From Lytechinus pictus (taxonomy: Eukaryota), in contig NC_087250.1 of assembly GCF_037042905.1 (NCBI RefSeq), positions 6,512,001 to 6,572,000 of the forward strand: a stretch of DNA of 60,000 nucleotides, read 5' to 3'. Of the stretch, positions 38,971-59,272 are shown piece after piece; the stretch's first letter is position 1, and each line of letters starts with the position of its first letter. A program made the translations under genes and the position numbers. Below the pieces are notes generated by a model. That model saw only the letters and a program-made list of their open reading frames with translations, searched no databases and was not told the DNA's origin.

Positions 38971-39990
38971 GTGTGTGTGTATTTCTCTTGACTTTTACTT
39001 TTATTAATGCGAACTAAGCCTCATCATCTGTGGAACTTTCCTTTTAATTTCTGAAAGCAACATTTCAAACGTTTTCATTACAAGTAATAGGCGTCTATCT
39101 TACAAAGAAAATAAGCGGAATGTCATATTGAGTACAATCATTTCAAATAAACGTACAAAGTAAACGTATAACTTACTCACACAGTTCGACCCTTATAATA
39201 GACTCAATGATTTCACATACTTTAATTTTTGCTTTGTATATTATTTAATGCCATTATTTTGGTAATTTATTATATGTTATATATTGTTCTTTGTATACCA
39301 ACAGCCGGAATATGATTTTTGTGCCAATGTAATTTTTATTTTGAGCATGACAATAAATGTTGAATATCTGAATATTTAATGGTGGTAGAATTAGTAGCAT
39401 CAGTGGCATGAACAGTAATAGCACCAGTAGTAGTAGTTGTAAAGAAATTGCAGTAGAAGTAAGAGTACACACTTAAAAATAGGTAGTCAAAATTTGACTA
39501 GTTTGGGTAGTCATTTCAAAATAACCCTGGATGTAGTCAAATTTGACTGCATATGGGGTCAACCTTTCACTGTTTACTTTGCCTTTTGGCTTTTTGACTG
39601 CGCCGGAAGTTAAAAATGACTAGGTGTATGAAGTGGAAAAATAACTTGCCTAAAGAGTCATCATCAAAATGACTGCAATGCAAGTTGAACGGCGGAGGGA
39701 TATATTACTGTGTGCAGTGTTCAATAATCAATAGTTATTTTGCTAATACTTGTAATGTTGTAATAGCAAACAAATTTAATCAGTGTGAAAGAAACAACAT
39801 TTTAAAACTTTCCATGTGTTTCACTTCATTTGCGTTGTGATATATATTATTTTTATCAAAGAACTATTTTACTTCAGGTCGAATCACTCAATGTATGGTG
39901 AGTATGATTTCGAATTTCCCGCCGCGTCTCAAGTAAATGCGAATTTTTTTACTGCAGTCTAGTCTGCATGCGACCGCTTAGTTGGTGTTG

Positions 39991-40048
39991 ATGATGGAGA
40001 GGCTCCTAAATAAGTGGGGATTAGGTGGTTTAGTTGCTGTGTTTGAAG
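39991..40048 (+). CDS. SAM-gene exon 1 (MMERLLNKWGLGGLVAVFE)
   Basis: ATG after an in-frame stop; strong donor GAAG|GTAAGA; supplies the missing first half of the SAM motif in exon 2. Confidence 0.7.
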
Positions 40049-43000
40049 GTAAGAAATTTGTCTTGAGTGTCAAACATATTTGTGTCTTTACTATGTAAAC
40101 TTACATGATTGTAGTATTTCGTTAAGCTTAAGTAATTTCACAAAATAACACGTTGACATTGACATTGCCATTGCAGTGCATGGCATACTGTAACCCAGAG
40201 AGCTCCCGCCCGCGCAGCGGGCGCACGTACGTGCATAGCGCCAACTTAATGTGTTCCGCCATCTTGCTTGTTGGTTGCCGATAAAATGCGCATTTTCAGA
40301 TTTTTTAACGCTCAGTTATTATCCATGACTGAAACATTGACCAATCAAAAACTAAGATTCTACAAGAAATATGAATATTCATATACGAAAGTATAAACAT
40401 AGATAATTCAGTTTTATGTGAAATTTAAACCCAATACTTCAAAATATGGTTAGTTTTATGTCTCTAAAATGACCCTTAAAACCAGAATTTTATTAGTAAA
40501 AAATAAAGGTTTTCCCAAGTTGCCATGGTAACGCAGTCTGAGATATAAAAGCTTAGCAAACACTTCATTTCAGTGATCGAGGATGTATTTGTTTACGGTA
40601 TACGTCTACATAAATTATAACATTTTTTTCCAGACCATGGATGAACTTTCAAAAAGAGACATTTTAGGCAAGTTTTTACGATTTCCGGCAATTTTCTGAC
40701 ACAGGCACTTTGAAGAGGTAATTTTTACAGAATTAGAAGAAGACATCATGGATTTTCCTAATTATCACGACGGATATGCAACTTACTTGTAAACAAATCA
40801 AACAAAGTCTATGATACATTTTCGATAATGCAAAAAGAGACATTCAAGTCTCTGATTGAGAGCCGCAGATTGAACATTCGCACGGCGCAATGGTAGCGTT
40901 TTCGCCGAATTCGTCGGGGCGAAAACTCCAAGAGAGCCGTACCACTCACCAGTCCCGAACGCTGCGCTGTATGTTTGATGATTTATCTGGTGCCATTTCG
41001 TGCTTATAAATTTGTTTTTTCTACAATGCCACTATCTCATTAAAATTGTTTGTCATGATAACATTGGAAATATTATCGTTTAATGGCCCAAAGGATCGAC
41101 TGTAATAAAAGATACTTTGAAATATTGTCAGAGAGTGATTAGTTAGGTGATGTTTATGGTCAAAATTTAGTCATGGCTTCGGGTGAACTTACGCGAACGC
41201 GGTCACTTGCTCACGGGGCGAGTCGGCCTGGCCCTTTGGTGGAAGGCCGTTAGGCAACGTGCAGTGCAGCTAGAGCAGAGTTGGGGAGTTATAGGTATAA
41301 AAATACTTTGAAATAAGTAATCTGCAAATATTTTTGTCTTATCCCTTTGGATTACTTAGATAAGAAATTCAAATTCTCAAAGTTTAAATCAAATTTTAGA
41401 CAGTGACAACAAAGAGTGGTGCTGTATGGGGGGGGGGGGTGGGGTCTTGCATGCCCCCAATTCACGAACAAGAAAAAAAAGGAAAAGGTAAGAGAATCTT
41501 GCGAAATTGTTCAATTGGATTTTTGTAACCAAAAGTGAAAATTATGCTTATGTCGCTTGCTTGCAACTATATATTTTATAAATTTTGCCTGATACGCCAT
41601 ATCGTAGTACCCTCATGCAATTATTTTCACTTGTTACGCCACTGACATGACTGATATAACATCTACTAGTTTATGATAACATTATTTGGTTGCGGGATCA
41701 AAGCATCAGCTATATAGCTAAACATTTATACTTTATGCCTGTTCAACTTCTAATACAGGTTTAGGCCTGTATTTATGAGATGTTAAGATCTATGGGTGCC
41801 TTTATTATTTTCATTTTCAATTAAAACAATTATTAATTATGTATTAATTTAGTATTAACCTCGATGATACATTTTATTGTATTAAATCGTACAATTTATG
41901 TTGTATTGTATTAAGCCCCTTATTAAGCCCTTTTAAAAACATGCTCAGTAGCAGACCCCCCCATATATAAAGACAATAGAAGTGTATATATAGAATTAAT
42001 TGAACCCCCCCCCCTTATTGAGGACAAAATGAAAAAAAATACTCAAAATAATCGACCGCCCCCCCCCCCCCTTTGACGAGGCAGCTGTCGGTGGCCTGAT
42101 GTCTTCATTGACTTCTTTTTGCTTGTAAAAATAATATTAAAGGAATAGGGGCTACTCTAAGTGTCCCCTGTGAAAATTGATTTGGATCTGCAAGTGCATG
42201 AGGCTGCGCCCCCTCCAACGTCATAGCTACCCCATATCTTTAGGTTCTAGCTCTCATATTTTTCAGCTCCCGTGTTTTTTGGAAGAAAAAAAAACGAGGC
42301 GAAAGAAAAGAGTGAAATAAATGAAATACGATTAATCAAAATTTGAGTTGTTTGAAAGAATTATACTTATCAGAGAAACTAAATTAAATTCTACAACCAT
42401 GAAGAATAACAGCAATCTTGATAAATTCTGTTTTTTTTTTCAAAATCAGAACCAATCAACCTTTTTCTGATTATTCTGTCACTTTCCATATTTTGGAGAA
42501 AAAAATAAAAGTGTTCATCGACGCCCTGTACTATACTGCATGATGAAACTGTATCCCCACTCGGCCCTCGTAACCCCCCCCCCCCCCTCTCTCCCTCTCC
42601 TCCTCCCCCACCACAATGCCCCTTGCTCATTTCTCTTATCTCACCTTGACCTTAATTAATTAATCTTAACTATTTGGCGGTACAGTCAAACGTGACTGGT
42701 CGCCATCATAGTTTCATCCCCAACAAACAAGGAACAAACTAACAATTCTGTTTTTCGACCCAACATCATTCCTTTCAATACGCGTAAGGCTATACGTGGG
42801 CATGCACAAACAACGTGGGTTAACAAAAACTGACCCGCGTTTGGACTAAAATTGTGATTAAAATAAAAATGTTATAAATATGAAAAAAATATGTGTATAA
42901 TGAAGGATATCTGATAAACGGAAAAACATCAATCGCTATTTCATAAAAATGCTGGAAAAGATTTGACAGAGGTTTTTAACAACGGTAATCAAGGGGAATT

Positions 43001-46000
43001 AGTGTATGGGTGAATGGCGTTCGAGCTTTAACCGAGCGTTAGCCGGAGAGGGCGCGGGCCAAATCTGCCTGAATCTGGCAATATGGCGTCGTCCATTAAG
43101 CTGACGTTAGCCAGCGGCGACTGCACGTACGTGGGCGGGAGCCCAGAATCTAAGACTAAGACAAGTAACACTTAACATAACAGACATTAATGCTAAGTCA
43201 ATCGTATTTCAACACTGATTATTCTGAAGTAAAGCGTTCCTGAATAAAAGAAACTGCTGAGAATTATACTTATTCATATGAAGATGAAATAGAGGGGATG
43301 GACTAGGCCTAAACTTCAACTTTCAAGCTTGAAGTTTGGGCCTAGTCCGTCCCCGCTATTTTCATACCCCATGACTACATCGACAATCTCGCTAGCCGGC
43401 TAGCACCGGCGATATCAAAGGCCGGATCCCGCTCTGACCATATCCCTACATTGACCTAAATTTGAATAGGCCTAAAATCGACAGTTTGTCGTTACTAAAA
43501 AACAGGAGGTCGGAAACAAGTCCACATCTACCCCTGATAATTGTCTAATCACAATAAAACTGAAATAAAATTAAAGGTTTACTTTGGACCTACATGAAGC
43601 ATTCCGATGAATGTCTAGATCTACGATAAACTATATAGACCCCTAGATATAGTATTTTTTGAGAAACTCAATGATCACACTTATTTGGAAGTCGGGCAAA
43701 AGAAATATTGAAATTGAGGTTTACATAGTGCGTAATACCGTATGGGTACTAGTATTCAACCCGGCATAATTCAAAGATTTTGACATATTCCCCAATATAT
43801 TTAGAAATGGGGAATTTATCTTAATTTCACACCTTTGTTATTTCCAGGGTATTCTGTTGTCGATATTTTCTTTGTCAATCTGTCGACTGTATGCGCGGAG
43901 GGTCGAATTATGCGGCGATGGCCTTTTGCACTGAATGGTACTAGTATTCAACCTAGTGAGGATTGATAGCAAATCTCAAAAGGGTTTAGATTGCTAAATT
44001 AGATCTAGATCTATGTAAGTCTCTGGCTTTGATTAATTCCCTGTTTGGTCTCATCTCAAATGGTCTAGTCCATAGTCGGATGGGACAAGTGCAGATTGAG
44101 AGACAGGGCCATCTTTCATCGCCAGGTTGAATACTAGTACCGACGGGTTGAATACTAGTACCAAAATCCGTCGCCGTATAATTCGATCGCCCGCGCACAC
44201 AGTCAACTGGTTGAAGAAAAAAATAACGGAAAAAGAATAACCAGCATTTGCTCTTGGAAATAAGACGGGTCTGAAATTCAGGTAAATTCTATATTTCTAT
44301 ATATTTGAGGAAACTCTCCAAACGGGTTGAATACTAGTAGTGCCCCTTACGGTACAGGATGAGCCCCGAACCCCGGCAAACACATTACAATTTGCAAGTG
44401 AGATCAAAACATGAAAATGAGCCGCGTAACTTATTTTTATTCCTATGGAATGTCATTAGAATAGTATTGATGTTCCCTCCAAGATTTTCCGCTCCAATGA
44501 AGTTCACTCAGAAACCATGATTTCGAACATCAATTCTATAAACAGATAATTAGTCTAGCTATTTCGTTTCAGAAACTTCAAATTTGCAGAGTCCAAAAGA
44601 ACGACACTTCGCACAGATATCGTAGGGAATTGTGGGACAGAAAAAAATGTTTAATGCATGAGTACATGAATAAAACATTAGCGTTTAATCCAATCATACA
44701 AGTGCATTATGCGTATTTTGACGTCATTCTCATGAATAAAACATTGACCCTCCAAAATCATCCTTCAAATTGTCCGCCGGCAGCCATGTTGGCTATGTGC
44801 AAAACCTATGGGAAATAAAACACGCGGAAAGAGTTCCCTCTCTAGCTCCCTTTGGGAGCTTACGTATACGTAAGATCGTATCTCTGTGCCTACAACACAC
44901 AGTACAATGTCCCATGCAATGTCTATGCGCTTGTGTGCTTTACGCATACACACAACCCAGTGTGTAAGCACTGCGCGCATATCATATGCAAATAGGTAGA
45001 CAGGCCAGTCTATTCTCAAGCAGGGTAGAGTAAGTTACTTACAAAGATAATCAAAGAGTTGCCTAAATTTTAGCAATATCAGTTTTAGGAAGAAAACAAA
45101 CTGAATAATCATGCCTTTAGAATCTATTATAATGCAATGAAAATGATATTTAGCCACTGTATCTTCTGTTTGACATATTTCCCCATTATGTTGATACCCC
45201 TATTCCGAAATTGATGAACCTATATGGTATGATAAGTTTATTGAACTTTATTGAACCCTGTATGTCTAGACTATTCCATTTTCAGTTAGGTATGTGGTGC
45301 ATCATAAATGACTTGGAAGTACTAACAATTGTTTTTCTCACAAGTAAAATGTATTCTTATAACTGCAGGAATTTATTTTTTCATAAAGATGTTATTTCTT
45401 AAGATTTATGTCTATCATTCATCCCATGTAAAGCTCCTACAGGTTGCATAGGGCCAATGTCTTATTACTCTGAAATCATATATCCCCATAAGTAAGAGCT
45501 GTGTTCCACACTAAGTATTGATTAGACTCTCAAGTTGCCAATGGGAAGAGTGGTCATTGAAATCCTCTCTGACAGGCCCTCTGTCGCGAATGAGTTAAAT
45601 CGTAAGCACAGCTTACATCGCAAAATTGGATGTTCAGTTGAATTTTTGGACAGTTGAAAATTAACGCAAAAAATTGCATTTTGAAAATGAATAGAGTTTT
45701 GGGTCTGATATGAAGACAAATATTGGATTTTGGACCCTGAAATTGTTTTTTGATGTTAAGCCGGCATGTACAATTTTGTACGCCAATGTTAGAAAAGACG
45801 CGCAAGCGTTGTTTTAAATCGTAAGTACAGCTTACATCGCAAAATTGGACGTTCGGTCAGATTTTTGGACAGTTGAAAATTAACGCAAAAAATTGCATTT
45901 TGAAAATGAATAGAGTTTTGACAAATAGACAAATATTGGATTTGGGACCCTGAAATTTTTAGAATTGGATGTTTAGAATTGCAAAATTGGACGTTCATTT

Positions 46001-49000
46001 AAATTTTTGAAAATGAATAGAGTTTTGTGTCTGGTATAAAGACAAATATTGGATTTTGGACCCTGAATTTTTTTTTCGGATGTTTAGCCGGCATGTACAA
46101 AAACCCAAATAAAATTCCTCATTGATCTTTTTTGCCTGCCAGGACCAGTAACAAAAGTCTACCAAATTCTGCCTGTTTTTATTTGGTACTACTGATAATA
46201 ATATACTTCCCTACATGTATCTTTTGCCAGGTGTCATTAACATAATCAAGGCCTAGCTCCTTGGTTGCTGGATATTCATTTTGCAATTAGACATTATAAA
46301 TAAATTGACCTCTAGATGACCTTCGACCTGTCGGGTCACTTCAAAACCCCAAGCAATGTAATACTAGTCAGTCAAGGATCCCGTTGACCAAATTTGGTGG
46401 CCAACTTTTTGTGATAAAACAAATTTCACCTAAGTAATCTGCTTAATATGGCCTTTTATCGTGCATAAAAATCTCACTTTTGATGAAAAAATTTCAGGGA
46501 TGATTTTTGGGATCATAACATGCACCTTTAACGGTTAACCTATAGATAGTTAACAAAATAATGGTTCATTTTTTAGTAAATCGCAGAATGCCCCTGCCTT
46601 TAATTTAACTTCCATGAATTGCCAAAGGAAACCAAAAGTGGTTGTGACAATGAATGATTTCAAGTGCTGTAACTTCTGTCACTATTTATGTGTGCAGGTA
46701 AAAAAGTCATGTTTTTGACACTTTTTGACATGTTTTATAATGCTGAACCATCAGAAAATTTGGTACCAGTAACCAAAAAAAAAACGAGAGATCATGGCGT
46801 AGATGTATTTTGAATGACTGAATGTTCATATTTTGTTTTTTCATGTCCGTCTTTTCAGAGAATGGTATAGATGATCATGCCTTTAAACATTTGGAGGAGG
46901 ATAAAGATGCCATAAAGTTGTTGATTCCGAAGTTAGGAGAGAGGATAAAATTTCTTCTGCACTACAGACCATACATAAAACAACTTCAGGTACATGTAGT
47001 ACATTGACCATATACATGTATACTATATATTGACCATGGGATTTGTGTGTTATAAGTGCCAAAACACTATATATTTTGGGTTTCGTTACTACTTAAAGCA
47101 TCTGAGAGTTGTTCATGACATTATCCAAGGAAACCAGTTTAGATGCCCTGTACCTTGTTATCAGGATGGATGTATGAGGACATTTCAATATACTTGGTCT
47201 TTAAAGAGACATTTTAAAAGTGAACATGCACAACTTGAACATGTTGATGATGATCAGCAAAATGAAGAAGCTTTTCAGGAGCAGGACCCTCAGGCTCAGC
47301 AACTTGATTTGGATCTAAATCAAGACATAGCTGATGAAGAAGATGAGGAAAATGAACCAGAAACTGACATTTTCATAAAAAGTGCACAATTTCTTTGCAA
47401 GCTTAAATCTACACGACATGTCACTGGTACCACTGTGTCCCTAGTTCAGCAGTCAACCACAGATCTTATTTCTGACATAGTTGGGTGTATAGGCGAGAAA
47501 GTGAAGACACTTGTTGCAAATTTAGGTGTTGATGAAGAAAATCCGGAATGGCAAGAATTATCCAACTGTCTGAATAATCTTGAACAGCCATTTTCTGAAG
47601 TAAACACAGATTACAAACTGAAGAAATACTTACGAAAATTACAGGGCTTTGTCGAGCCAAAGTCAATTAATTTTATGAATGGAAATCAATTAGCTGTCGA
47701 GTATGTACAAAGAACAGATAGAAAAACCGGAGAAGTGCAGCAAACAGAAATCAACAAAGATTTCCAGTATGTACCATTGAAACTACTCCTTCGACAGATA
47801 CTGATGAGTAAAGGTTTGATGGAAGCTATAATAGAACATCAACAAAATGTTAAGGATGACATTCTTCAGGATTTCCAAGATGGTGAACTGTGCAAAAGCC
47901 ACCTGAATATCTACGGCCATAAAGTCCTCTTGTTGATATATGGTGATGACGTTGAGGTTTGCAATCCACTTGGATCGAGGAAGCATAAAATCGGTTTAAT
48001 GTACTTCACGATCAAGAGTCTACCAAGAAAGTACACATCCGCACTCGAGCATATTTACCTTTTGGCTGTTTATAACAATAATGATGCAAAAGCCTATGGA
48101 ATGGATCAAATCTTACGTCCCATAATCAATGATTTGAAGAGTCTGGAGAGTGATGGGATTGACATTGAAACTGATGTGTTTTCAGGCAACATTCGCTTTG
48201 GAGTGGCACAAGTTGTTGGTGATAATCTGGGTGTCCATGGTCTCCTTGGATTTGTGGAATCTTTTTCAGCAAACTTCCCTTGTCGTCATTGCAAAATCTC
48301 CAGAGATGAAATTCAGACACAATATATTGCAAGTTCTGTTCTTAGGAATGAACATAACTATATGGAGGATGTTGCTATAAATGACGTATCAGCAACTGGC
48401 ATCAGACGGAACAGCATTTTCAATGAGCTTCAGACATTTCACGTAACTAGGAACTATGCCCCAGACATCATGCATGATGTTTTGGAAGGGGTGTGCATGT
48501 GGGAACTTAAGATTGTGATACGAGAACTTATACGAAGCGGTAAATTTACACTGGAACTTCTGAATGGCAGGATAACCAGCTATGATTATGGATTCACTGA
48601 CAAGTGCAACAAACCAACCTGCTTCACAGAAAAAGATCTCAGATCTCCAAATGCTGCAGGACAAACAGCTGCACAGATGTGGTGCATAATGAGGCATTTC
48701 TGTCTTATGATGGGCGACTGTGTTGAAGAAGATAATCAATACTGGGAGGTCATACTTCTCCTGATTGAGTGCATGGACATCATTTTCTCCCCTGTCAATA
48801 CTGTAGGAGAAACTCGCTATCTCACGCAACTCATAAGAGATCATCATCAAATGTATGTTGAAGTGTTTGAAGCTCATCTCAAACCCAAGCACCATTTTAT
48901 GTTGCATTATGCAAAAGCTATCAGAGAGATTGGGCCATTGGGGCAATATTGGGCTATGAGGTTTGAAGCTAAGCATAACGACTCCAAACAGATGGGTCAT

Positions 49001-52000
49001 GTCATTTGCAACTTCAAAAATATACCATTATCATTGGCAGTCAAGCATCAAATGCAGTTGTGCTATACATTGCATACTAGGAAATCATTGGAAGATTCAA
49101 TGTTAGAAGTTGGACCAGGGGAAGCTACAGTACTCGCTTCATTGGATGATGCAGAAATCATCTCAAATCTGTTAGACAACTATCCATTGTTTGATGATGT
49201 TTTCATTGCGAAGTGGATTAAATTCTGTGGCACCATCTACAGAAAAGGTATGATTTTGGTTGTAGGGAAGTGTCCAGATGAGGATCCTAATTTTGGGAAA
49301 ATACATGAGGTCCTTGTTCTGCCAGAATCAAAAGTTAAGTTCATCGTCCAGCCATGGTCAGTAGTAGGGTATTCTCGCCACTTGCATGCTTATGTTGTCC
49401 AGAAACCAAGCATACTTACTAGACTTGCTTCATGTGATGTAGAACAACTGGTAGATTTCCACCCACTTCATGCAACACAGGCTTATATGGAAGGAGACAA
49501 CTGGTACATCAGCCCAAGATACTCACTTTAATGTGGTAAGAAAATAAAAGGTGAAAATGCCTTTACCAAATATGCATCAGTACAGAATGATCTTTTTGTT
49601 CTGTGCTTCTTTAAAATTTATCTGTAAAGTTTATGACCTGTGTAATAAAATAACATTTTGCACACCTTTTAATATACAATTCCAGTTTTAATTTAAGAAA
49701 ACCGATTTTTTAATAAGTCAATTTAACAACAATGCTCAGTTGCTCACACGTTTAGAGGTTAATGTGACTGATACGATTGAGTTGGGAGTGCAAGCGACCT
49801 TTCATTTTTTCACAAGAACATTTTAAATCCCCACCGAATCTTCCTAGCGTGGGTCACACTTGAACGCATTTAACCACTTCAAAGCAAACCCAAGTATCTG
49901 AGTAAACAAAAGAACACTTGAACTTAGCTTTCCTGGTCCATGGGGATGTAATGTATGTGGTAGCTCATTATGTGTTTACTCTTCCAGAAAAGAATCGATT
50001 ATTCAAAATGCCTTCAGCTACATTCTCTGAATCGCACATGAATACAATTAACATGCTGGTACTTATATTTTGTTGTTTTCTTCTTTTATATTGTCTTAGG
50101 GAGAAAATGCTGATGCAGAACTATCTGAAAAGGAACTAGAACCAGGGGAAGTGTGTGAATCTGTGGCAGAAAAGTCAACAAATAGATGGATAAGAAAGGA
50201 AGCTGTGAAGGTACCTGATAAGACAATAATGTCTGTGAGTATATAACCCTATAAGCCCATTCACATTAGAACCAAGCAACCCTTTGGCCTTTGAACCCTC
50301 AACCCTTGAGCGAAGATCTAAAAGAACAGTATGCCAAATTTGGATTTATGTTGTTCAAACTTGGACATGACTTGCTTAAGACTTTGACCTTTATGAAAAC
50401 ACAACTGTTTGCTATTTTCATGTACTTTTTTAACAAATTAGCATAATTTAAAGTAAAACAATAGAAATCGTGTTTTATTTTTTTCCTGAAGGCCTTGAAC
50501 TGTAGTTAGCACAACATACTTGTACATGTACTGTACTTCCGGTGACCTGACCTAGAATGTCATCCGGGTACTTGTTCTTGTTTGGTGCTCAAAAGTTATT
50601 GTTATATGTCATGTTTGTAGCGGAAGGAGTTCTAGTCAAGGATAAGGCATTAAATTGTTTTCAAACTACATTGGACAGTGTTTGTTGTAGTTAACATAGG
50701 TTTTACTTAAACATGCTATGCACACAAATCACAAGAAATGAAGTAAATGAAAAGCCTCACAAATCTGTCGAGCCACTTTTTTTAATTTAGATACTTCAGA
50801 AGTGCCAAAAAAGCACAATGTTTGGGTTTCTCTCGGATCCGAGAGAAAATATTACACTATAGTCTATGGGGAAATGTAATGCACGTAATGATGCATAACT
50901 TGGCAATGCAAAGTTCAAATTGACTGAAATTTTGGAAATAGGGTTTTCTTGGGTGTATCTACTGATACATGTCATTAAAAGTGGGGGTCAAAATCAGGGA
51001 ATGTCCCTTTAATTTGATACATTTTGATACACTGCTACTGCTAATAGGTAGGCCTATATTTTTACATAGTATTGATATTATCAAAACTGTATCAAATTTC
51101 GGCAAGGGAGATAAACAAAGTGAGCAACTTCATGTTTAAGTAATTTTCAAATTTGTCTAGTTTGGCCTTGATTGACCATATTACGGTGTTGCATATATAG
51201 TCATGAATTGCTTCTATAATTCCAGAGTGATGTAGCAATGCTTTCATCTGATAGTGACTCAGCCGAGGAAGAAATTAGTGCAGGACCAGCAAAGAAACAA
51301 AAAACAGAAATGAGTGGACCAGCAAAGAAACCAAAAACAGAAACGAGTGGACCAGCTAAGAAACCAAAAACAGAAATGAGTGGACCAGCAAAGAAGCCAA
51401 TTGTGAAGATGTCCAAGACACCATATGAATTTGTGAGTTTACTAAATTAATATATACCACTTACCAGGTTTAGTGAGGACTGCCTTTCAATAAAAAAAAA
51501 TACTAATCAATAATAAAAACCCAATATTTTGAGCAAAATAGGAGTCATGCTGAATAATAGGCCTACAAAATCAGATTGATGTAAACATTTTGTATTTCGT
51601 TATTCATTGCACTATACATAATTACATGTACATATCAACTCGTTAACAAAAACTTTTGATAACAAAAAGTATTTTTGTCAAATCTCAAGAAAATGCCTCA
51701 CATGGTATAAATTTAAACAGTTCTGACAAGAAGTAAATTCTAATTCCCATGTACTTTAACGAGTAACAAATAATTTTTTTCTGGCCTAACTGAAAAAAAA
51801 TACTGGTATAATAAAAATAACCGTTCAAATATTTGTTTTTTTCTTTACCAAATTCTAGGACATAAGTGCTATTCTGGAAAAGGCTGCTGGTGGCCAGTCC
51901 ATTCTCGGTGAACTTGAAGAAGGTGGACCACAGAGTGCCTCTAACAGACGAAGAATGGTGAGAATAGTTGTATCCCACCTCATGGAGAAATATGGAAACA

Positions 52001-55000
52001 AGTAAGAAAATACTCAAAAATTTACAAACAACTAACAAAATCAATAGACCAGGGTTGGAGCTTAGACCAGTCAAAAGCTATTTTTCACAAAAGTGGTGAA
52101 ATGCAGGTTTCTGGGGATATATGAGGGATGGATATAAGTTCTCAACCTTCAGGTAGAAGGAGAAAAGATAAATTGATGATTTTCATATCCCTGATATGAT
52201 TCAACAACTCTTAAAATTGGGGGGGGGGAAGTTTCATTATAAAAATTAACTGAAATATTTGCTTTGTTACAAAACTTTGACTGTTTCAAGTTTCTGAAGA
52301 TAACTTTTCAATAGAAAATGAAAAGACAGTTACAATCAATATTCATCTCCAAACTTGTTCAGATGCATGAGGGTCATGGTGCAGTGACATCACTGGAAGA
52401 TGATTGCCCTTGCTGTGCTGCTAAAAAGTATGCAGCATAGTTTAAAGGCAGCAGGGAGCATCTGGAAGATGAATGAGTGCAAAATCTATTTACTAATAAA
52501 AGACAAATTTGTTCTTATATTATCTTATAGGTATCTGTAGTAGATCATTATTTTTTTCCTTTCTTCTTGGATCTTTATAATAATAGACCATCTGCTGAAC
52601 AGAAGGTGGGCATGGCAATATCCATGATTCAACAATTTCCAGCACTGAAAGATGTTGAAGGACCTGGTTATGTAAGTATAAGTTTAATCATGTTAAAAGA
52701 ACATCATTTGAAGCAGAAAATTGTGTTGTTATCAACAAGTTGTTTTTGTCCCATTGTACCATATGGCTTTCCCCATGAACAATAACTTTGAACAGAAGAG
52801 AAAATACCGGACTCATCTAACGCTTATTGGTGGCATTTCGGTTTCTCTCGTGCCATATTCTTTCTGTTGTTCAATAACAACAATATGCGTTGTCAACTAT
52901 TTTGCACCATCATAAGTGTTTAAATACTGAATTGAACAAAACTTTTACACTTAAATGTTACACTTTTTTAGGTTGTACTGTAAAGTAGGTGCTGTACAGT
53001 GCGTCCCAAAAAAAACTATACACTTTTGAAATAGCTGCCAAATAAAAAATGTAGCTCTTTGGGGTAAAAGACTTACATAAATGGAAAGCCAATAAAGTCA
53101 ACTTTAAAATGACACCAAAAATTGGAAAACTATTCATGCTTGAGCGAGCACTGCCCACTGAAACAAAGGGTATGAAAATTAGGGTGGGCTGGAATTAGCC
53201 TTCCAATTTATGTAAGTTTTTGAGAGGCAAATCCTTTCGAACTTGCAAAGTTAAGGGCGATGTGATAAATTAATGATCAACCATGACCAGTTTTGGTTGC
53301 TTAAGCAAATTTTATAAATTATTAAATTGAACTTTAATGCATGAGTGAACACAAATTACACTTTTTGGGCAGAATTCCAACTTTATCATGTGGATCTCAG
53401 CAATGTGTTCATGGGAGTCTGGAGAATAGGGGGTGAGATAGGACTTAAGTGAGAGAAGTAGGTTGATGGAATAAGGGTCAACAGAACATTCAGCCCCCGC
53501 CCCTCCCTCTTTCCCGCCCTCCCCTCCTGTTGAGAGATTGATGGCTATTGTCATGTACGCGTGAAGTCCAGAGCAGAATGTTGATTTAATGATTAATTCT
53601 GGATTGGGACATCAACTTTTTCCTATCAATCATTTAATCAACAATTTATCAGTAAATCAACTTATTCAATGTGCAAAGTGATCAATCAAACATTCAGTTT
53701 TTTTTCAATAAATTATTTCATTAATCATCATAATCATTAAATTTCTTGGTAATCATTGAAAAATAAAACTGACCATCAGCCACCGGTCACTTGGCAGTTA
53801 GGTTTTGAATAGGCTACAATGCAGGAAGTGAGACAGAGAGAGGGGGGGCTGGGAAATGGAGGTGATCAGAGGGGAGGGTACATATGACTTTTAATTTGTA
53901 AAAGAAAAAAAAAAGAAGAGGAATGCCCTTTTAACCAAGTCTTAGCATATCTCGCCCTCTTGCTTGTAACGGGTACCATCACATTACTCTGACTCTCACG
54001 AACACACTTCTGAGGTTCACAAGATGAATATGCTACAATAAAATTACAATTCCTGTTCACTCATGCATTAAATTTCAATTTAGTAACTCATGAAATTTGC
54101 CTAAGAAACCAAAACTTATCTCACTCATTAATTTAGCTTAACAAGTTCCAAAGGACTAACCACTCAAAAAAACTGTAAGGCTAATTCCTGCCCAGTCTAG
54201 CTGAGCTTAGTCTCTCAGGAGGAGAGAAGCGGGGGGGGGGGGGTTGAGATTGAGAGAGGGGTTGCTAAATGTTCTGTTGACCTTTATCCCATCAACGTAC
54301 GTCACCTACCTAAGTCATATTACCCCCCTCTTCTCCTGACTGTCGTGAACACATTATTGAGATCCACATGATAAGACATAATGCTGCACCCAATTCATGA
54401 TCACTCATGCATTAAATTTCAATTTAATAACGCATTAAATTTTCACAAACAACAAACTGATCACAACTGATCTTTAATTCACCAAATAACCATCAACTTT
54501 GCAAGTACCAAACAAAGAAACCTGAAAGAAATTGGAAGGCTAATTCCAGCCCACCCTAATTTTCATACCCTTTGTTTCAGTGGGCAATGCTCGCTCAAGC
54601 ATGAATAGTTTTCCAACTTGTTGGTGTCATTTGAAAGTTGAATTTATAGGCTTTCCATATCTATAAGTCTTTTCCCCCAAAGTGGTACATTTTTTATTTG
54701 GCAGCCATTTCAAAAGTGTATAGTTTTTTTTGGGACGCACTGTATATTCACTCATTGCTGTTACATGTATTTCTTTGTATAAATTTCGCACATAGGAAGC
54801 ATGGTATACACCAGCAGTAGAGGGTGCACATGCAAAGGGCTTCATCGAAGAAAGGTTGAAAAATGTGAGAAAGAGAATGCCAAAGCAAGGGTGGACATCT
54901 TTGGAACCTTCAAGTTCAAGTGAGGAGAACCAGAAAGAACCATCAACCAAGGAAAAAATTGAAGAACTAAAATCTAAAGGTATGTTAATGTGCCTAGTTT

Positions 55001-58000
55001 AAGTTTTGTTGCATGCTTTGTGAACATTGAATGTTTAATTATTACTGGCTCATCTTCAAGTTCAAGTTGGGTTTGGTAGGCTTACTTGATTACAATCTTC
55101 AGAATTATCAGATGATTTATAATGTTCCACATTCCACAGGGACCAGTCTTTGGTCTACCAATTTTCACCTCATGATGCTCAGCAGATTGCTTGTGATCAA
55201 GTTAGCTCAATCGGTAGGGCATTGTACTCCAGATCTTAAGGTTGTGTGTTCAAGTCCCAGCGCAGCCATGATTTGTATGTTTGATTGAAATTCCCTTGGC
55301 CACGGAACTAATTGCTTATTGTCTCAGCTACCGGTATAATATTCGGGGACTCCGAGAGCTGGTCCCAGTTGCAATATTGTTCTTCTAGATGTAGGCTGAA
55401 TAGGGTTCTGTGCCCAATAGCAGCTGCATCCCTGGATGATGCTAAATGGAGTGTCTTTTGGGTGAAAGTGATCAATGCCATTTCTCTCAAAGTGTGTTGA
55501 GGCTGTGAGTTTACGCTTTAAATTTGTAGAGCGCACTTTAAAATCATCTGCATGTTTTTTTTTTTGTTTTTTTTTTTGTTGCTTGTAACACTTAATCAAC
55601 TTGCATCAAAGGCATGTTCCAACCTCTTACAAGAAACCTATAACTAGTTTAGATAAATTTTTACAGGAAGCTTAGTCTGATTCCTGCAGTGCATCTGGTC
55701 AGGAACTTACATCCCAGGGGGGGGGGGGGTCTGTCCTCATTGAAAGGGGGGGTATCATGCATGACCAAGGACTTGCCAAAAGCATCCTAAACAAGTATTT
55801 ACAAATGCAAAAATATACACCCTAAATAAGTATGATTATCGGTAATTTGCTACCCTAAGTAAGTAATCCCCAAAGCAAGTAATAACTATTTTCAAACCAA
55901 GCAAATAGTGATATATGTTTTGCTTTCCGTGCATGAGGTCGGGCTAATTCAAGTGTTTGCGGGCATGTGCAAAGTGTTTTTGGCTGGGATTTGGGAATAT
56001 TCCATCATTGTGATAAACTGTAGTGTTAAATGAACATGCAATTAGCCCTAAGTACACAGGTAAGGTGAATTTTTTTTAAAGACACTGAATACGTAACTCA
56101 TCGGTTTAAAAAAAGTGACCCTTTTTCTTGATTTTTTTGTGATTTTGAGACCCTATTTAAGTTACGCACGTAACGTGCATGATTGTAAAAAACACCCTTT
56201 TTACGTGAATTCTTGGTCAAGCATGATACCCCCCCCCTTTCAATGAGGACAGACCCCCCCCCCCCCCCCGGGACTTACATCAGTGCACTAGATCTTAGGA
56301 TTGATTGCCGTCAAATTTTAGAGCCTTAAACAGGTGTCACCGGCATGGTGGCCTAGTGGTTAGAGTGTCCGCCTCATGATCGGGGGGTTGTGGGTTTGAA
56401 CCCCAGCCGGGCCATACCAAAGGCTTTAAAAATGGTACCTACTGCTTTCTTGTCAGGCACTCGACATTAGAAGAATGGAGTAGGGAAGTTAAACACATGG
56501 CTACCAGTGGACTAACCCCCTGCTGTAGTTTCTCTACTTTCCAGTAGACATGTGGCCTAGGTTTATTGAAATGGAGATAGGCGCCGCTCTATGGGCCGAA
56601 AGGCTTGAGAAGGACTTTAACTTTTTGTAAAAGGTAGTTTAGGGTTTGCTGTAGGTAGCCTACTATTGATTTTGTTTTTTATCACCTTGTCTTTTTCAGA
56701 AAAAGATATGGAGCCGGAGAACTTGGAAGAAATGAAGCAATGGCTTCAACATAATAATAGCCCTATCCCTAAAGTGGTGGAATTCATGAAGAAGACTGCA
56801 CTGAAAAGACAAGAAGAAATTCACTCAGAGAAGAAATCTACCGTGCATGACATCGAGTTGCAATGGCCTCGACTCTTTGATGTCCCTAACATGGTATGGG
56901 TAACTTTTGTTTTCTTGGTTTATGTCAAAAGTACAGTAAAGCATTAATTCTTGAGGTGTGCTTCTCAAAAACCCAAATAAAATTCCTCATTGATCTTTTT
57001 TGCCTGCCAGGACCAGTAACAAAAGTCTACCAAATTCTGCCTGTTTTTATTTGGTACTACTGATAATAATATACTTCCCTACATGTATCTTTTGCCAGGT
57101 GTCATTATCATAATCAAGGCCTAGCTCCTTGGTTGCTGGATATTCATTTTGCAATTAGACATTACACATGTGCCCACCCCAAAATTACCATACTGAATCA
57201 AGGTTTTACAATCCTTCTTTATGCATTTTAATTTGCATCACAGATAGATGGTGATTTCAGAGCAGTTCATGGGGATGTGTCTGACAGATTAATCATGAAA
57301 TGGACTCAAGAACTGGCAAAAAAACTACTGCAGTATGGAGAAAAGCAAAGTCCACAAGTGCAAGCCGGTACATATTTTCCCCGGGGGAGGGGCACTCAAT
57401 ATGAAAGTGACGTACGAGTAAGATCACACATCTCGAACATAGGGGTCTTTCGGTGATGCGTTCAAATGAAAAATAGGGGGTCTTTGGGTGACAAATGAAA
57501 AATAGGGGGTCTTTGGGTGACAAGTAAAAAAATAGGGTGTCTTTCAGTGACAGTCTAAAATCTGGGTTTTTCGGTGACACACCAAGCTAAAAAATTGGCT
57601 CTTTTTTAGTGTGATTAAATGGCATTTTTCTGAAAATCAAAAATTTGGGCAATTTTTGGGTCAGAGAGTGCAAAATTCATGGGTCTTTGGGTGACAGAAA
57701 AAAATTGGGTCATCAAATGGAAAAAACGGGGGTCTTTGGGTGACAGCAGTCCAAAAAAGGGGGTCTTTTTGATCGCACATGGTGCGAACTTCAATATTGA
57801 GTGCCCCCACCACCACCACCCCCACCCGGGGTATTTTCTGTAATATTTTGCTTTTCAATAATTTTGTATACTGTTGTAAAAAAGATGCGATTCAGTGTTA
57901 AAATATTTACCATGGAATTGCTCTATTTTAATTGAAGTTTGTTTTCCTTTCAGATATAGATGATCAAAGTGCACAGGATGCAGGTCTGACAGCACTGCCC

Positions 58001-59272
58001 TTGATACTGCCTACAGGAAAACTGTCAAACGCAAAGAAATCCAGGGCTACGGTGAAAGAAGCAATGGAGTCCTTCATTGATTTTCAGCCGGTAAGTATGG
58101 AGTAAATTTTAGTGCCTATACTAAATGAAATGTTTGGGTATAGAGGTGGGATGCAGATGGGATATATCCAATTGGAGGATGTTTTTGTATATCTTCTTGC
58201 ACATAAAATGAAAGAAATGCCTCAAGTACTCCATTTGGTTGAAAGTGATATGTAAAGAATGGGACACGTTCATCAAGACAACAACAGTTTGGCTGATGTG
58301 ATGCTCACACAGTTTGTATTGCATAGATCTGTCTTACTTAATTGTTATCATCGGAGATGCCAGACTTCAGGAAATTTTTTTCAGCATCTCCAGTACAAAA
58401 CAAGATTAAAAATTCATATTTTCAAGAAATTTTATTAGCGTTTCAGGAAAATGTGACCAAAGTCACTGGCATCTCTGTATCATTTTGATTATGGTTCGAT
58501 TAACTGCAGAATTTGCATGCTTGTCGCACTACATTTGTAGCACATCCCACATGCAGCCCAAACTTTCCATGTTTGCTAATTGAAGTTCAGCTGACAGGTC
58601 CCTAATAGAACTCGACTCTCACTCTACACCTAGATCTGTGATAGATCTTTAGAACTGTGATATAAAGAAAGGTTAAGTTTATATGACAACTTCTATCATG
58701 ATCATGGTCAAGTTACAGTAGTTACCCTCACTATATAGATTTGACAGACTGACCCATGATGTCAAACGCCAGGCAGTATAGTCAAATATTGTTCCTCGAC
58801 CAGCAAAGTGTGTGCACACAATGTACATCAGGACCATGCTAAAGCTATATCTATCTACAACCCACTTACCAGTAAGAATTAAGTACGCAGACAGAAAATA
58901 TCTAGATTTATTTTTTAAATGTAAATTAATCAGTAGATTAATTTTCTCTTTTTACAGATAGGGACAAACCTCCCTCAATACTTGGATGGACTCATGTCAA
59001 AGAGGCGGCAACCATTTGTCCTGGCCCTTGGCCCACAGAAAGCGCCAGCACAATATTTTGCTGTGGTTGAGGGCCGTGCCCTTAAGCAAGACAGCCTTCT
59101 GAAGGCTGTTGATGTGTGTTTCAAGTTGTTTTATGTACTTGACCTGGAGTATCCATCTGCGTGCTATACTACATGGGAGTTTATTCAAAAAGTTCTGTAC
59201 CAGGTAAATGCCAAAGACAGGAACACCTCCTCCTGTGTGAGGTCACTAAGGACATATGTCCTTCATACTTAA
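39991..59272 (+). CDS. 11-exon gene, ~570 aa: N-terminal SAM domain, acidic/basic linker with NLS-like repeats, SAMD3-like C-terminal region; probable transposon accessory protein
   Basis: Hand-assembled exons, all GT-AG and phase-compatible: 39991-40048, 46859-46989, 50100-50234, 51226-51432, 51859-52001, 52587-52671, 54796-54979, 56700-56893, 57244-57367, 57954-58090, 58958-59272 (1713 nt, no internal stop). Motifs: LNKWGLGGLVAVFEENGIDDHAFKHL..LIPKLGERIKF; QQFPALKD; GFIEERLKNVRK; QWPRLFD; AVDVCFKLFYVLDLEYP..TWEFIQK. Confidence 0.8.
40200..43144. mobile_element. ~2.9-kb non-autonomous TIR element (possibly PIF/Harbinger) in intron 1
   Basis: GAGCTCCCGCCC..CACGTACGTGCA..CTTAATG..CGCCATCTTGC mirrored by GCAATATGGCG..CATTAAG..TGCACGTACGTGGGCGGGAGCCC; AGA on both flanks. 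Confidence 0.6.
43738..44352. mobile_element. Tc1/mariner-pogo-like MITE with TA TSD
   Basis: TA|CCGTATGGGTACTAGTATTCAACCCG ... CGGGTTGAATACTAGTA..CCCTTACGG|TA; GTACTAGTATTCAACC motif repeated internally in both orientations. Confidence 0.8.
45595..46100 (+). repeat. Local tandem duplication, ~220-bp unit, two copies plus a partial third
   Basis: TAAATCGTAAG.ACAGCTTACATCGCAAAATTGGA at ~45596 and ~45815; GAAAATGAATAGAGTTTTG..GACAAATATTGGATTT three times. Confidence 0.85.
46098..46296 (+). repeat. 199-bp segment duplicated at 56966-57164
   Basis: CAAAAACCCAAATAAAATTCC...GCAATTAGACATTA; one substitution seen (TTAACATA vs TTATCATA). Confidence 0.95.
46859..46989 (+). CDS. SAM-gene exon 2 (ENGIDDHAFKHLEEDKDAIKLLIPKLGERIKFLLHYRPYIKQLQ)
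   Basis: Polypyrimidine tract and TTTCAG acceptor; CAG|GTACAT donor; SAM-like motif. Confidence 0.8.
47036..49531 (+). CDS. CACTA/EnSpm(CMC)-like DDE transposase with two N-terminal C2H2 zinc fingers, 831 aa, intronless and intact
   Basis: CYKC..HLRVVH and CYQDGC..HFKSEH fingers; LIYGDDVEVCNPLG (first D); VGDNLG..PCRHC (second D plus CxxC); PDIMHDVLEG; KHHFMLHY; WAMRFEAKH (E); AATAAA at ~49543. Confidence 0.9.
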   Translation: MGFVCYKCQNTIYFGFRYYLKHLRVVHDIIQGNQFRCPVPCYQDGCMRTFQYTWSLKRHFKSEHAQLEHVDDDQQNEEAFQEQDPQAQQLDLDLNQDIADEEDEENEPETDIFIKSAQFLCKLKSTRHVTGTTVSLVQQSTTDLISDIVGCIGEKVKTLVANLGVDEENPEWQELSNCLNNLEQPFSEVNTDYKLKKYLRKLQGFVEPKSINFMNGNQLAVEYVQRTDRKTGEVQQTEINKDFQYVPLKLLLRQILMSKGLMEAIIEHQQNVKDDILQDFQDGELCKSHLNIYGHKVLLLIYGDDVEVCNPLGSRKHKIGLMYFTIKSLPRKYTSALEHIYLLAVYNNNDAKAYGMDQILRPIINDLKSLESDGIDIETDVFSGNIRFGVAQVVGDNLGVHGLLGFVESFSANFPCRHCKISRDEIQTQYIASSVLRNEHNYMEDVAINDVSATGIRRNSIFNELQTFHVTRNYAPDIMHDVLEGVCMWELKIVIRELIRSGKFTLELLNGRITSYDYGFTDKCNKPTCFTEKDLRSPNAAGQTAAQMWCIMRHFCLMMGDCVEEDNQYWEVILLLIECMDIIFSPVNTVGETRYLTQLIRDHHQMYVEVFEAHLKPKHHFMLHYAKAIREIGPLGQYWAMRFEAKHNDSKQMGHVICNFKNIPLSLAVKHQMQLCYTLHTRKSLEDSMLEVGPGEATVLASLDDAEIISNLLDNYPLFDDVFIAKWIKFCGTIYRKGMILVVGKCPDEDPNFGKIHEVLVLPESKVKFIVQPWSVVGYSRHLHAYVVQKPSILTRLASCDVEQLVDFHPLHATQAYMEGDNWYISPRYSL
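50100..50234 (+). CDS. SAM-gene exon 3 (GENADAEL..PDKTIMS)
   Basis: TCTTAG acceptor, TCT|GTGAGT donor, open phase 0-0. Confidence 0.7.
51226..51432 (+). CDS. SAM-gene exon 4 with ~4 x 33-bp repeats encoding SGPAKKPKTEM
   Basis: TTCCAG acceptor, TTT|GTGAGT donor. Confidence 0.8.
51859..52001 (+). CDS. SAM-gene exon 5 (DISAILEKAAGG..RRRMVRIVVSHLMEKYGN)
   Basis: TTCTAG acceptor, AA|GTAAGA donor. Confidence 0.8.
52587..52671 (+). CDS. SAM-gene exon 6 (PSAEQKVGMAISMIQQFPALKDVEGPGY)
   Basis: TAATAG acceptor, TAT|GTAAGT donor. Confidence 0.8.
52997..54742. mobile_element. Non-autonomous Tc1/mariner element with very long TIRs and TA TSD, in intron 6
   Basis: TA|CAGTGCGTCCCAAAAAAAACTATACACTTTTGAAAT ... 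ATTTCAAAAGTGTATAGTTTTTTTTGGGACGCACTG|TA; close inverted match for ~215 bp, looser to ~500 bp. Confidence 0.92.
54796..54979 (+). CDS. SAM-gene exon 7 (EAWYTP..GFIEERLKNVRKR..ELKSK)
   Basis: ACATAG acceptor, AAG|GTATGT donor. Confidence 0.8.
55196..55268 (+). pseudogene. tRNA-Trp(CCA)-like pseudogene or SINE head
   Basis: TAGCTCAATCGGTAG (A box), ACTCCAGATC anticodon arm, AAGGTTGTGTGTTCAAGTC (B box); acceptor stem does not pair well. Confidence 0.55.
55713..56272. mobile_element. Non-autonomous TIR element with CCC(A/G)GG ends and perfect 8-bp TSD
   Basis: GGGGTCTGTCCTCATTGAAAGGGGGGGTATCATGC.TGACCAAG mirrored at the right end; ACTTACAT at 55705-55712 and 56273-56280. Confidence 0.9.
56338..56626 (+). 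mobile_element. tRNA-derived SINE
   Basis: A box TGGCCTAGTGG, B box GGTTTGAACCCC, core CCATACCAAAGGCTTTAAAAATGGTACCTACTGC, tail GGACTTTAACTTTT. Confidence 0.85.
56700..56893 (+). CDS. SAM-gene exon 8 (KDMEPENLEEMKQWL..QWPRLFDVPNM)
   Basis: TTTCAG acceptor, ATG|GTATGG donor. Confidence 0.8.
56966..57164 (+). repeat. Second copy of the 199-bp segment at 46098-46296
   Basis: Direct comparison. Confidence 0.95.
57244..57367 (+). CDS. SAM-gene exon 9 (IDGDFRAVHG..KWTQELAKKLL..VQA)
   Basis: TCACAG acceptor, CCG|GTACAT donor. Confidence 0.78.
57380..57830. mobile_element. Non-autonomous TIR element with CCCGGG ends, 8-bp TSD and internal GGGGTCTTTGGGTGACA repeats
   Basis: CCCGGG..GGGGCACTCAATAT / ATATTGAGTGCCCC..CCCGGG; ATATTTTC / GTATTTTC flanks. 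Confidence 0.85.
57954..58090 (+). CDS. SAM-gene exon 10 (IDDQSAQDAGLTALPLILPT..SFIDFQP)
   Basis: TTTCAG acceptor, CCG|GTAAGT donor. Confidence 0.8.
58352..58477. mobile_element. Possible tiny hAT-like MITE
   Basis: CGGAGATGCCAG / CTGGCATCTCTG ends; TATCAT on both flanks. Confidence 0.45.
58958..59272 (+). CDS. SAM-gene terminal exon 11 (SAMD3-like C-terminus)
   Basis: TTACAG acceptor; QPFVLALG..YFAVVEG..AVDVCFKLFYVLDLEYPSACYTTWEFIQK..TAA. Confidence 0.85.
   Translation: MGTNLPQYLDGLMSKRRQPFVLALGPQKAPAQYFAVVEGRALKQDSLLKAVDVCFKLFYVLDLEYPSACYTTWEFIQKVLYQVNAKDRNTSSCVRSLRTYVLHT

Follow-up and report, generated by a model that had tools for sequence, protein, structure and literature searches.

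EnSpm elements make up a large share of many animal genomes, and their production of two proteins is known mainly from plants. Elements of the EnSpm/CACTA group are marked by inverted-repeat ends (5'-CAC..GTG-3') together with a target duplication of 2-3 bp.

Maize En/Spm, in the accessible parts of its accounts (PMC2613891, PMC1636069), is one transcription unit in which an intron of the accessory gene houses the transposase ORF. A short spliced RNA encodes the accessory protein, and a long RNA carries the transposase ORF and the accessory exons as two ORFs in tandem. Among animals, the CACTA element SmTRC1 of Schistosoma mansoni yields spliced RNAs that mostly lack the transposase ORF; one clone joins the transposase to downstream exons as two tandem ORFs, and truncated copies give many transcripts (PMC1636069). 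The available part of that account mentions neither a SAM domain nor a two-donor switch, and its full transposase RNA was predicted and uncloned. Related EN/SPM families of Arabidopsis switch between two arrangements, alternative splicing or two tandem genes, with the accessory gene alone retained in those that are non-autonomous (PMC13547354). They encode the plant TnpA, without a SAM exon, and the accessible text describes no in-frame accessory-transposase read-through. Autonomous zebrafish CMC-EnSpm elements are reported to encode two proteins, with the end CACTCAAAAAAAT and a CA duplication (PMC13189230; bioRxiv 10.1101/2024.04.05.588311). Our literature search found no description of a SAM-bearing animal EnSpm element or of such a switch; Repbase Reports and the greater part of the subscription literature, which may contain such a description, lay outside its coverage.

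Here we analyzed a 60,000-nt stretch of Lytechinus pictus DNA (the window), which contains an autonomous-type EnSpm/CMC DNA transposon. Its accessory gene comprises 11 exons with an open frame for a 570-aa SAM-domain protein, and the transposase ORF lies inside intron 2. As in maize, a single unit houses both genes. Three features differ from the maize descriptions consulted. The intron hosting the transposase follows a coding exon, which puts the transposase behind a 68-codon SAM ORF and splits the accessory ORF, whereas that of maize is whole behind the transposase; the sea-urchin transposase is one uninterrupted ORF; and the accessory protein, which has a SAM domain, matched none of the TnpA families in Pfam. 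The probable left end resembles the zebrafish EnSpm end CACTCAAAAAAATGA, which also has a CA duplication (PMC13189230), and short repeats of the GTAGTCA/TGACT type run 3' of it to about 39680. Within the window, no right end matching it was found.

Features of the Lytechinus pictus EnSpm/CMC element, in window positions (X1 and X5, contig runs; a > b, splice junction).
Feature	Position	Strand	Evidence or remarks
Probable left end CACTTAAAAATAGG	39470..39483	+	CAC start; follows CA (39468-39469), a candidate 2-bp target duplication
Coding part of accessory exon 1 (first SAM helices)	39991..40048	+	junction 40048 > 46859 in X1 and X5 contigs
Accessory exon 2 (remaining SAM domain)	46859..46989	+	contig junctions; profile and structure matches
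Proximal donor CAG/GTACAT (accessory form)	46987..46995, cut 46989/46990	+	junction 46989 > 50100, X1 only; P0092
Stop TGA of the SAM-only ORF, reached if splicing bypasses the proximal donor	47005..47007	+	sequence
Intact 831-aa EnSpm/CMC transposase ORF	47036..49531	+	N-terminal zinc fingers; D304, D396, E644; C416/C419; H620/H624
Distal donor GTG/GTAAGA (transposase form)	49533..49541, cut 49535/49536	+	junction 49535 > 50100 in X1 and X5
AATAAA	49543..49548	+	12th base after transposase stop; inside distal-donor intron, no sign of use
Accessory exon 3	50100..50234	+	acceptor 50100 common to both donors (contigs)
Accessory exons 4-5	51226-51432, 51859-52001	+	junctions 3/4 and 4/5 in contigs
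Accessory exons 6-8	52587-52671, 54796-54979, 56700-56893	+	exon 6 start in contigs; 570-aa frame
Accessory exons 9-11	57244-57367, 57954-58090, 58958-59272 (stop)	+	570-aa frame; P0092 identity

The accessory exon model built here is identical to the RefSeq model P0092 (570 aa), which corresponds to the proximal-donor form. Exon 1 contains two tandem ATGs, the second in a strong context. A profile of 22 such SAM exons matched the Polyhomeotic SAM (E 4e-6), and the predicted SAM model matched the BICC1 SAM with an rmsd of 2.0. In En/Spm-type expression the accessory protein binds both the transposase and subterminal repeats; for the protein here, no fold match was obtained outside the SAM domain at E up to 0.001. 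Protein P0082 matched an automatic cluster named SAMD3-like with a score of 0.84 (tool mark 0.9), SAM being present on 12-18% of the members; this likeness, taken from a cluster name, is a lead only.

The transposase has a RAG1/Transib-like fold, with RAG1, BbRAGL and Transib as best structural matches (E 4e-11 to 2e-4). Three acidic residues, D304, D396 and E644, are invariant across 39 sequences and, from this invariance and their position, would be the catalytic DDE residues. The C416/C419 and H620/H624 pairs are also invariant in the alignment, a feature of EnSpm/CACTA transposases. A Pfam scan of the window transposase gave no match at E up to 1; PF02992 (Transposase_21) was matched by 4 of 13 scanned proteins and Plavaka by one, all below the curated cut-offs. 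The exact 831-aa protein is missing from the protein collection searched, in which the helper form is annotated, and this marks a gap in the annotation.

Splicing was followed in four of the ten listed runs: assembled contigs from two runs of two studies (X1, whose RNA origin was guessed by a tool, and X5, with no RNA origin on record) and raw reads from X8 and X9, two of the three raw-read runs on offer, 6 in 100 of each being read. None of the listed runs containing the stretch is recorded as RNA. Contigs do not equal single molecules, and assembly loses rare forms and short tips. The junction between exons 1 and 2, GT..AG like the two from exon 2 to exon 3, was present at depths of 47.4 in X1 and 79 in X5. 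From exon 2, two routes led to the exon 3 acceptor in X1. The proximal junction had a depth of 32.1 and was unseen in X5 contigs, and the distal junction (GT..AG), whose donor cuts 4 nt past the transposase stop, had depths of 15.2 in X1 and 79 in X5. The short-to-long ratio was about 2:1 in X1 and the long form alone was visible in X5, against 100:1 in the maize accounts (PMC2613891, PMC1636069), contig depth being a poor measure of abundance. The long-form exon measures 2,677 nt and includes exon 2 and the complete transposase ORF. Starting at the end of exon 1, a single 6,428-nt X5 contig (record 12; 4 differing letters in 2,678) covers exon 2, the transposase, exons 3 and 4 and sequence beyond, and accessory exons also lie behind the transposase ORF in X1 record 5. 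In X8 and X9, mean depth over exon 2 and the transposase was at most 0.5, with none of the three junctions. A form joining exon 1 to exon 5 reached a depth of 1,724 in X1 and probably comes from other copies of the element. An older RefSeq model, P0001, in which the transposase is spliced in frame to exon 3 from donor 49450, was found in neither contig run and was rejected as a main form.

These results support a shared transcript with a donor-versus-donor switch at acceptor 50100, the two donors being 2.5 kb apart. The first-pass annotation had predicted that splicing of intron 2 removes the transposase and yields the full accessory protein, in agreement with the X1 junction and P0092. It had also called the exon 2 donor weak. 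Its sequence and position were right, and its strength is middling: it matches the consensus at 7 of 9 positions, and on a rough frequency matrix it ranks sixth among the gene's ten donors, scoring 2.6 bits (gene range 0.1-7.3) against 4.3 bits for the distal donor. The stronger distal donor had gone unnoticed in that annotation.

Relatives were grouped into 65 clusters, one of 80 loci (L044, no long ORF) being omitted. The SAM exon lies directly 5' of the transposase in 20 of the 65, and in 13 of these accessory exons also lie behind the transposase; in 7 of the 65, the accessory gene is wholly upstream, comparable to the tandem genes of some Arabidopsis families. On a tree built by a quick method from near-full-length ORFs (52 rows), the nested layout recurs in several deep clades. 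The distal donor is not conserved: a strong donor near the transposase stop was found in 3 of 18 nested clusters, window included, and in none of 7 with downstream accessory exons only. Relatives may therefore end or splice their transposase RNA differently.

The first-pass annotation had placed the other arm of the switch at a polyadenylation site: when the exon 2 donor is skipped, the transposase RNA would mainly be cleaved near 49560, behind the AATAAA. Indeed, the hexamer sits where it was reported, with T-rich sequence and a second AATAAA (49644) downstream, and an RNA whose end lay some 25 nt beyond the distal donor would form a short tip, of the kind that assembly can drop. Both contig runs nevertheless splice from 49535 into exon 3 and continue through the accessory exons, and the hexamer begins at base 8 of the intron thus removed. 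The bin is covered to 0.92, which fits an end at 49535-49536; with an end at 49565 the value would be 0.99. Contig depth in 49570-49999 was about 1. No 3' ends 10-30 nt behind the hexamer were seen in the contigs, which cannot show ends, or in the raw reads, which are too thin there. The + strand of the window holds 84 AATAAA, giving a chance of about 7% of finding one in a given 55-nt stretch; its presence is thus not beyond chance. Counting clusters with an unbroken end and at least 300 nt of flank, 2 of 18 nested ones (the window among them) have an AATAAA no more than 60 nt past the stop, and 4 of 18 have one within 300 nt (2.9 expected, not an enrichment). Clusters in which the transposase comes last have one within 300 nt in 4 of 4 cases (1.2 expected). 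Polyadenylation as the main end of the transposase RNA is thus very unlikely. A minor 3' end near 49560 may exist: both rare forms and short tips are lost from contigs, and raw-read depth there is almost nil.

Contigs show no 5' ends and cannot part overlapping RNAs of the same strand. The long contig could therefore merge two transcripts, with the transposase starting from its own site in exon 2 or in the 46-nt spacer, and poor reinitiation would then no longer be needed. The depths speak against such a start. In X1, the inflow of 47.4 from exon 1 is matched by two outflows summing to 47.3. In X5, the path through exon 2 leads only into the transposase, which leaves an exon 1-exon 2 RNA no other destination; depth is zero in 46130-46559, within intron 1, and the 24.4 of the next bin is the amount that exon 2 alone gives. 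Moreover, three relatives have no transposase ATG of their own and require the SAM-exon frame. We give this explanation a very slim chance. As the first-pass annotation had suspected, the contigs point to a shared transcription unit, with no sign of a promoter in intron 1 or of an in-frame upstream splice onto the transposase; between the exon 2 donor and ATG 47036 there is no in-frame acceptor of a usable kind, the only AG lying 9 nt past the donor.

Read-through of the proximal donor gives a SAM-only ORF of 67-68 codons (a peptide of about 68 aa), and the transposase ATG, in ACCATGG, follows 28 nt past its stop; here the earlier reading agrees with the sequence letter for letter. The bicistronic RNA that it had proposed is borne out by contigs in that the transposase ORF shares an exon behind the SAM ORF, while reinitiation would be the step suggested by comparison among relatives. 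In 13 of the 20 nested clusters (10 of them from one clade, hence not independent cases) the SAM frame stops and an ATG follows 2-93 nt later, in all three frames. All 13 of these ATGs have a purine at position -3, compared with 54% of 1,260 control ATGs, and all are kept at the start of the zinc fingers. The spacers are not depleted in ATG (8 seen, 7.6 expected). After an ORF so long and across a gap so short, the available parts of the literature lead one to expect poor reinitiation (PMC5389480, PMC6614817), and at 47036 it is probably poor. Alternatively, ribosomes on the same RNA could shift by +1 at the stop (CAT TGA C) and so fuse SAM to the transposase. The transposase frame is indeed open from 47000, five bases before the SAM stop and +1 to the SAM frame, and 7 of the 20 nested clusters read through in frame, including the three without their own ATG; P0067 is such a fusion too. 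Among the 13 stop-type clusters, by contrast, frame offsets of 0, 1 and 2 occur in 4, 5 and 4, and just 4 have a transposase frame that stays open as far back as the stop. Together with the retained ATGs, this speaks against a conserved frameshift, which was rejected, and a shift at this locus is highly improbable.

It could also be argued that the long form is unregulated mis-splicing which gives no useful transposase, the element being effectively inert here. The near-zero depth in the two raw-read runs and the decay-target features of the RNA would fit. On the other side, the intact ORF carries every invariant residue, and the layout recurs across several deep clades. Accessory-only models at 14 other gene ids of the species, comparable to the non-autonomous Arabidopsis families (PMC13547354), encode proteins 88-100% (mostly 98-100%) identical, which indicates recent spread. 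We regard inertness as extremely improbable.

We consider it probable that one pre-mRNA carries two 5' donors, 46989 and 49535, competing for the exon 3 acceptor, as for TnpA and TnpD in maize. In the X1 contigs, the proximal donor removes the transposase ORF and gives the SAM accessory mRNA; in the contigs of both runs, the distal donor keeps the long exon, in an RNA that continues through the accessory exons. For the translation, decay and regulation of this long RNA, we infer the following. Ribosomes would translate the SAM ORF first, and a small share would restart at ATG 47036. With nine exon junctions and about 3.7 kb behind the transposase stop, the RNA would be exposed to nonsense-mediated decay. 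The AATAAA, 8 nt behind the cut, would be covered by U1 sitting on the distal donor. The net outcome would be plentiful helper protein and scarce transposase, like TnpA and TnpD. That only the long form is visible in X5 is hard to square with strong decay, or with a short form in 100-fold excess as in maize. A bolder reading, which we think unlikely, takes donor choice at the SAM exon as a developmental gate regulated by the host. Nearly all RNA would be of the transposase form at some stage (X5), and reinitiation and decay would then determine the output. As part of the helper, as a fusion to the transposase in relatives or as the 68-aa peptide here, the Polyhomeotic-like SAM would build or cap SAM polymers by which the transposition complex is assembled or held back, making the upstream ORF a regulator.

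The sea-urchin switch is an animal version of the maize En/Spm arrangement and probably works by competing donors rather than by an early RNA end. Its logic being that of maize, the surprise is limited. At this locus an animal element is intact, both of its RNA forms are seen and its two donors are mapped, where plants have supplied most of the knowledge. As embryos of this species can be injected, the switch is directly testable.

Four of the ten runs containing the stretch were compared over 39250-52149: X1 and X5, given as contigs and coming from two studies, and the raw-read runs X8 and X9. The contigs were taken as RNA because of their GT..AG joints and of zero depth in the intron bin 50430-50859; their RNA origin is thus deduced from both features, the automatic assignment being only a guess. 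Contigs give no RNA ends and no single molecules, and rare forms are dropped. Exon 1 of the helper, the SAM accessory gene hosting the transposase ORF, was joined to exon 2 in contigs of both X1 and X5. Coverage directly upstream of exon 2 was zero in X5. Two paths left exon 2 in X1: one was joined from the near donor to exon 3 (46989>50100, depth 32.1), and the other, a 2,604-nt contig, ran through the transposase and reached the same acceptor from a far donor (49535>50100, depth 15.2). These outflows sum to 47.3, against an inflow of 47.4. In X5, only the far-donor path was visible, as a single 6,428-nt contig. It holds 28 nt of exon 1, then runs through exon 2 with the transposase and through exons 3 and 4, and ends with a further 3,379 nt; subtracting exons 5-11 from this last part gives a 3' UTR of about 2.2 kb. 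In X8 and X9, depth in this region was at most 0.5 and neither competing joint was present.

The first-pass annotation had proposed a switch between splicing at the exon 2 donor and polyadenylation at the AATAAA behind the transposase stop. A switch giving two products from one unit is borne out. Use of the exon 2 donor removes the transposase ORF and gives the helper mRNA, and skipping it gives a long RNA with the SAM ORF, the transposase ORF and all later exons. The polyadenylation arm was not supported, since the contigs splice from 49535 to 50100 and go on. In bin 49140-49569, depth was 0.92 of the transposase depth in X1 and X5, which fits a coverage end at 49535 and not at 49565; in the next bin, the depth itself was close to 1. 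The AATAAA is where it was reported, but one has a chance of about 7% in such a stretch, with 84 on this strand. Since U1 suppresses nearby poly(A) sites, as described in excerpts of PMC3826338, U1 at the far donor would mask it. The far donor, absent from the first-pass annotation, cuts 4 nt behind the transposase stop. Very probably, then, two donors compete for one acceptor, in a donor-versus-donor switch. The contrast between X1 and X5, only two samples, hints that donor choice is regulated. The exon 2 donor, previously called weak, is middling (rank 6 of the helper gene's 10 donors, by a rough frequency matrix); its sequence, the read-through stop and the transposase start and ORF had been read correctly.

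Coordinates of features in the window and on related metagenome contigs (L numbers)
Feature	Position	Remark
ORF, 871 aa	23573-26188	DUF1759; weak zinc-knuckle and aspartic-protease matches
Putative left end of element	39470	likeness to zebrafish EnSpm end, as partly given in its source
Inverted-repeat inserts	43735-44353; 52995-54744; 55717-56266	helper introns
Direct repeat, 204 nt	46098-46301; 56966-57169	99% identical; helper introns 1 and 8
Near donor	46989	CAG/GTACAT
Read-through stop	47005-47007	after 68 codons
Spacer ORF	47016-47033	5 codons; stop 2 nt upstream of transposase ATG
Transposase ORF (+)	47036-49531	831 aa; ATG in ACCATGG
SAM-less helper ORF, far-donor RNA	49470-49535 joined to 50100-59272	529 aa
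Far donor	49535	GTG/GTAAGA
AATAAA	49543	starts at base 8 of far-donor intron
Common acceptor	50100	exon 3
Tandem repeat, exon 4	51283-51400	33 nt, 3.6 copies; lysine-rich motif
Helper end shortly 5' of transposase	L010:5430-5716; L019:5659-6001	also L043, L047, L052, L053
Short coding exon before transposase ATG	L056:640-760; L074:550-665	not SAM-like by profile
Nested CAC...GTG inverted-end pairs	L052:941-8647; L052:1887-8696	around tandem-type element

Among the joints of the compared runs, none linked an upstream exon in frame to the transposase, and none used the donor at 49450 that the older model P0001 has. Depth at a third joint, linking exon 1 to exon 5 (40048>51859), was 1,724 in X1, and X8 had 6 reads across it. 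This joint does not keep the frame, and what stays open is a 361-aa ORF starting like the shorter RefSeq models; the joint therefore probably comes from other, deleted copies still expressing most of the helper protein. Near-identical helper proteins occur in at least 14 other Lytechinus pictus gene ids (from 15 of 22 members of one protein cluster), starting at about exon 5 or later, which we read, from protein models, as deleted, non-autonomous copies. Reads and contigs also jump over some 620 nt at 43735-44353; other alleles or copies therefore lack this insert.

The helper gene has 11 exons, with the transposase ORF in intron 2, and is open for 570 aa, in a model identical to RefSeq P0092. 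Exons 1-2 code for a SAM domain, judging by the match of a 22-exon profile to Polyhomeotic SAM and by the overlay of the predicted structure on BICC1 SAM. When the 22 exons were scanned singly, Pfam SAM_1 gave weak matches to 9 and none to the exon from the window. The exon 4 motif could presumably serve as a nuclear signal. Elsewhere, the 871-aa ORF is what we take to be typical of a BEL/Pao-type retrotransposon.

It is fairly likely that the transposase is translated by reinitiation: ribosomes would translate the SAM ORF, then restart at the transposase ATG with low yield. Leaky scanning is unlikely: a ribosome that had passed the SAM start codons would meet seven further ATGs before reaching 47036, and the second of those start codons has a strong context. 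Reinitiation drops as the ORF lengthens and favours a longer gap (PMC5389480, PMC6614817, in part), so transposase output should be low. The long RNA has nine exon junctions behind the transposase stop. Junctions downstream of a stop are a classic trigger of nonsense-mediated decay, to which this RNA would be exposed. ATG 49470 of the SAM-less ORF overlaps the transposase end in another frame, in weak context, and derives from a conserved His codon; this ORF may be due to chance.

The transposase is 99.6% identical over 540 aa to a Lytechinus pictus RefSeq protein, and those of its 78 relatives with names come from animals. D304, D396, E644, C416/C419 and H620/H624 are invariant among 39 aligned sequences, matching what part of PMC12730594 describes for EnSpm, Mirage, Chapaev and Transib. 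The predicted structure (pLDDT 86.5) matches RAG1 and Transib. Judged by transposase motifs, with termini seen at the left end only, the element is in the same superfamily as maize and Arabidopsis En/Spm; its right end was not found within the 60,000-nt window.

Relatives were drawn from the best 80 of 522 matches in a metagenome contig scan, where 79 loci with a long ORF and window formed 65 clusters at 80% identity. Among these best 80 of 522, a SAM exon lay directly 5' of the transposase in 20 of the 65 clusters, helper exons were downstream only in 7, the helper gene was wholly upstream in 7, and no helper exon was seen in 31, often short contigs. Thirteen of the 20 also had helper exons behind the transposase. 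A phase-0 GT occurred 10-21 codons past the conserved SAM glycine in all 20 (codon 12 in 9), two scoring poorly as donors. Seven SAM exons run in frame into the transposase, three of them without its own ATG, requiring a common transcript. The other 13 stop, with an ATG 2-93 nt on, in any frame. This ATG has a purine at -3 in 13/13 (54% of control ATGs), with p 3e-4 for independent cases, which these are not, as 10 of the 13 belong to one clade. Six loci (L054, L064, L080, L059, L072, L060) show, by eye, a pyrimidine-rich stretch with AG at its end, 26-57 nt past the SAM donor, just before the transposase ATG; such a mini-intron may turn the transposase into an alternative exon in this clade. 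No more than about 20 nt separate the helper stop from the transposase ATG behind it in L010 and L019, which suggests stop-start coupling. AATAAA within 300 nt behind nested transposases was not enriched (4/18, 2.9 expected); behind terminal ones it was present in 4/4 against 1.2 expected, in small numbers. A strong donor near the transposase stop was found in just 3 of 18 nested clusters, arguing against far-donor use as a family-wide rule. In the tree, nested forms occupy several deep branches, with tandem forms interspersed.

In the maize En/Spm element, according to parts of PMC2613891 and PMC1636069, tnpA intron 1 holds the transposase ORF and the long tnpD RNA contains this ORF plus the tnpA exons; Arabidopsis families shift between splicing and tandem genes (PMC13547354, in part). 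On these partial accounts, the sea-urchin element works the same way. The switch itself is real and of a known kind, and the corrected point is its mechanism. Within the limits of the collection searched, no paper was found on the SAM-exon arrangement or on this switch in such an element. Unlike in maize and Arabidopsis, as far as those sources go, the sea-urchin host intron comes after a coding SAM exon, so that an upstream ORF or a fusion is forced.
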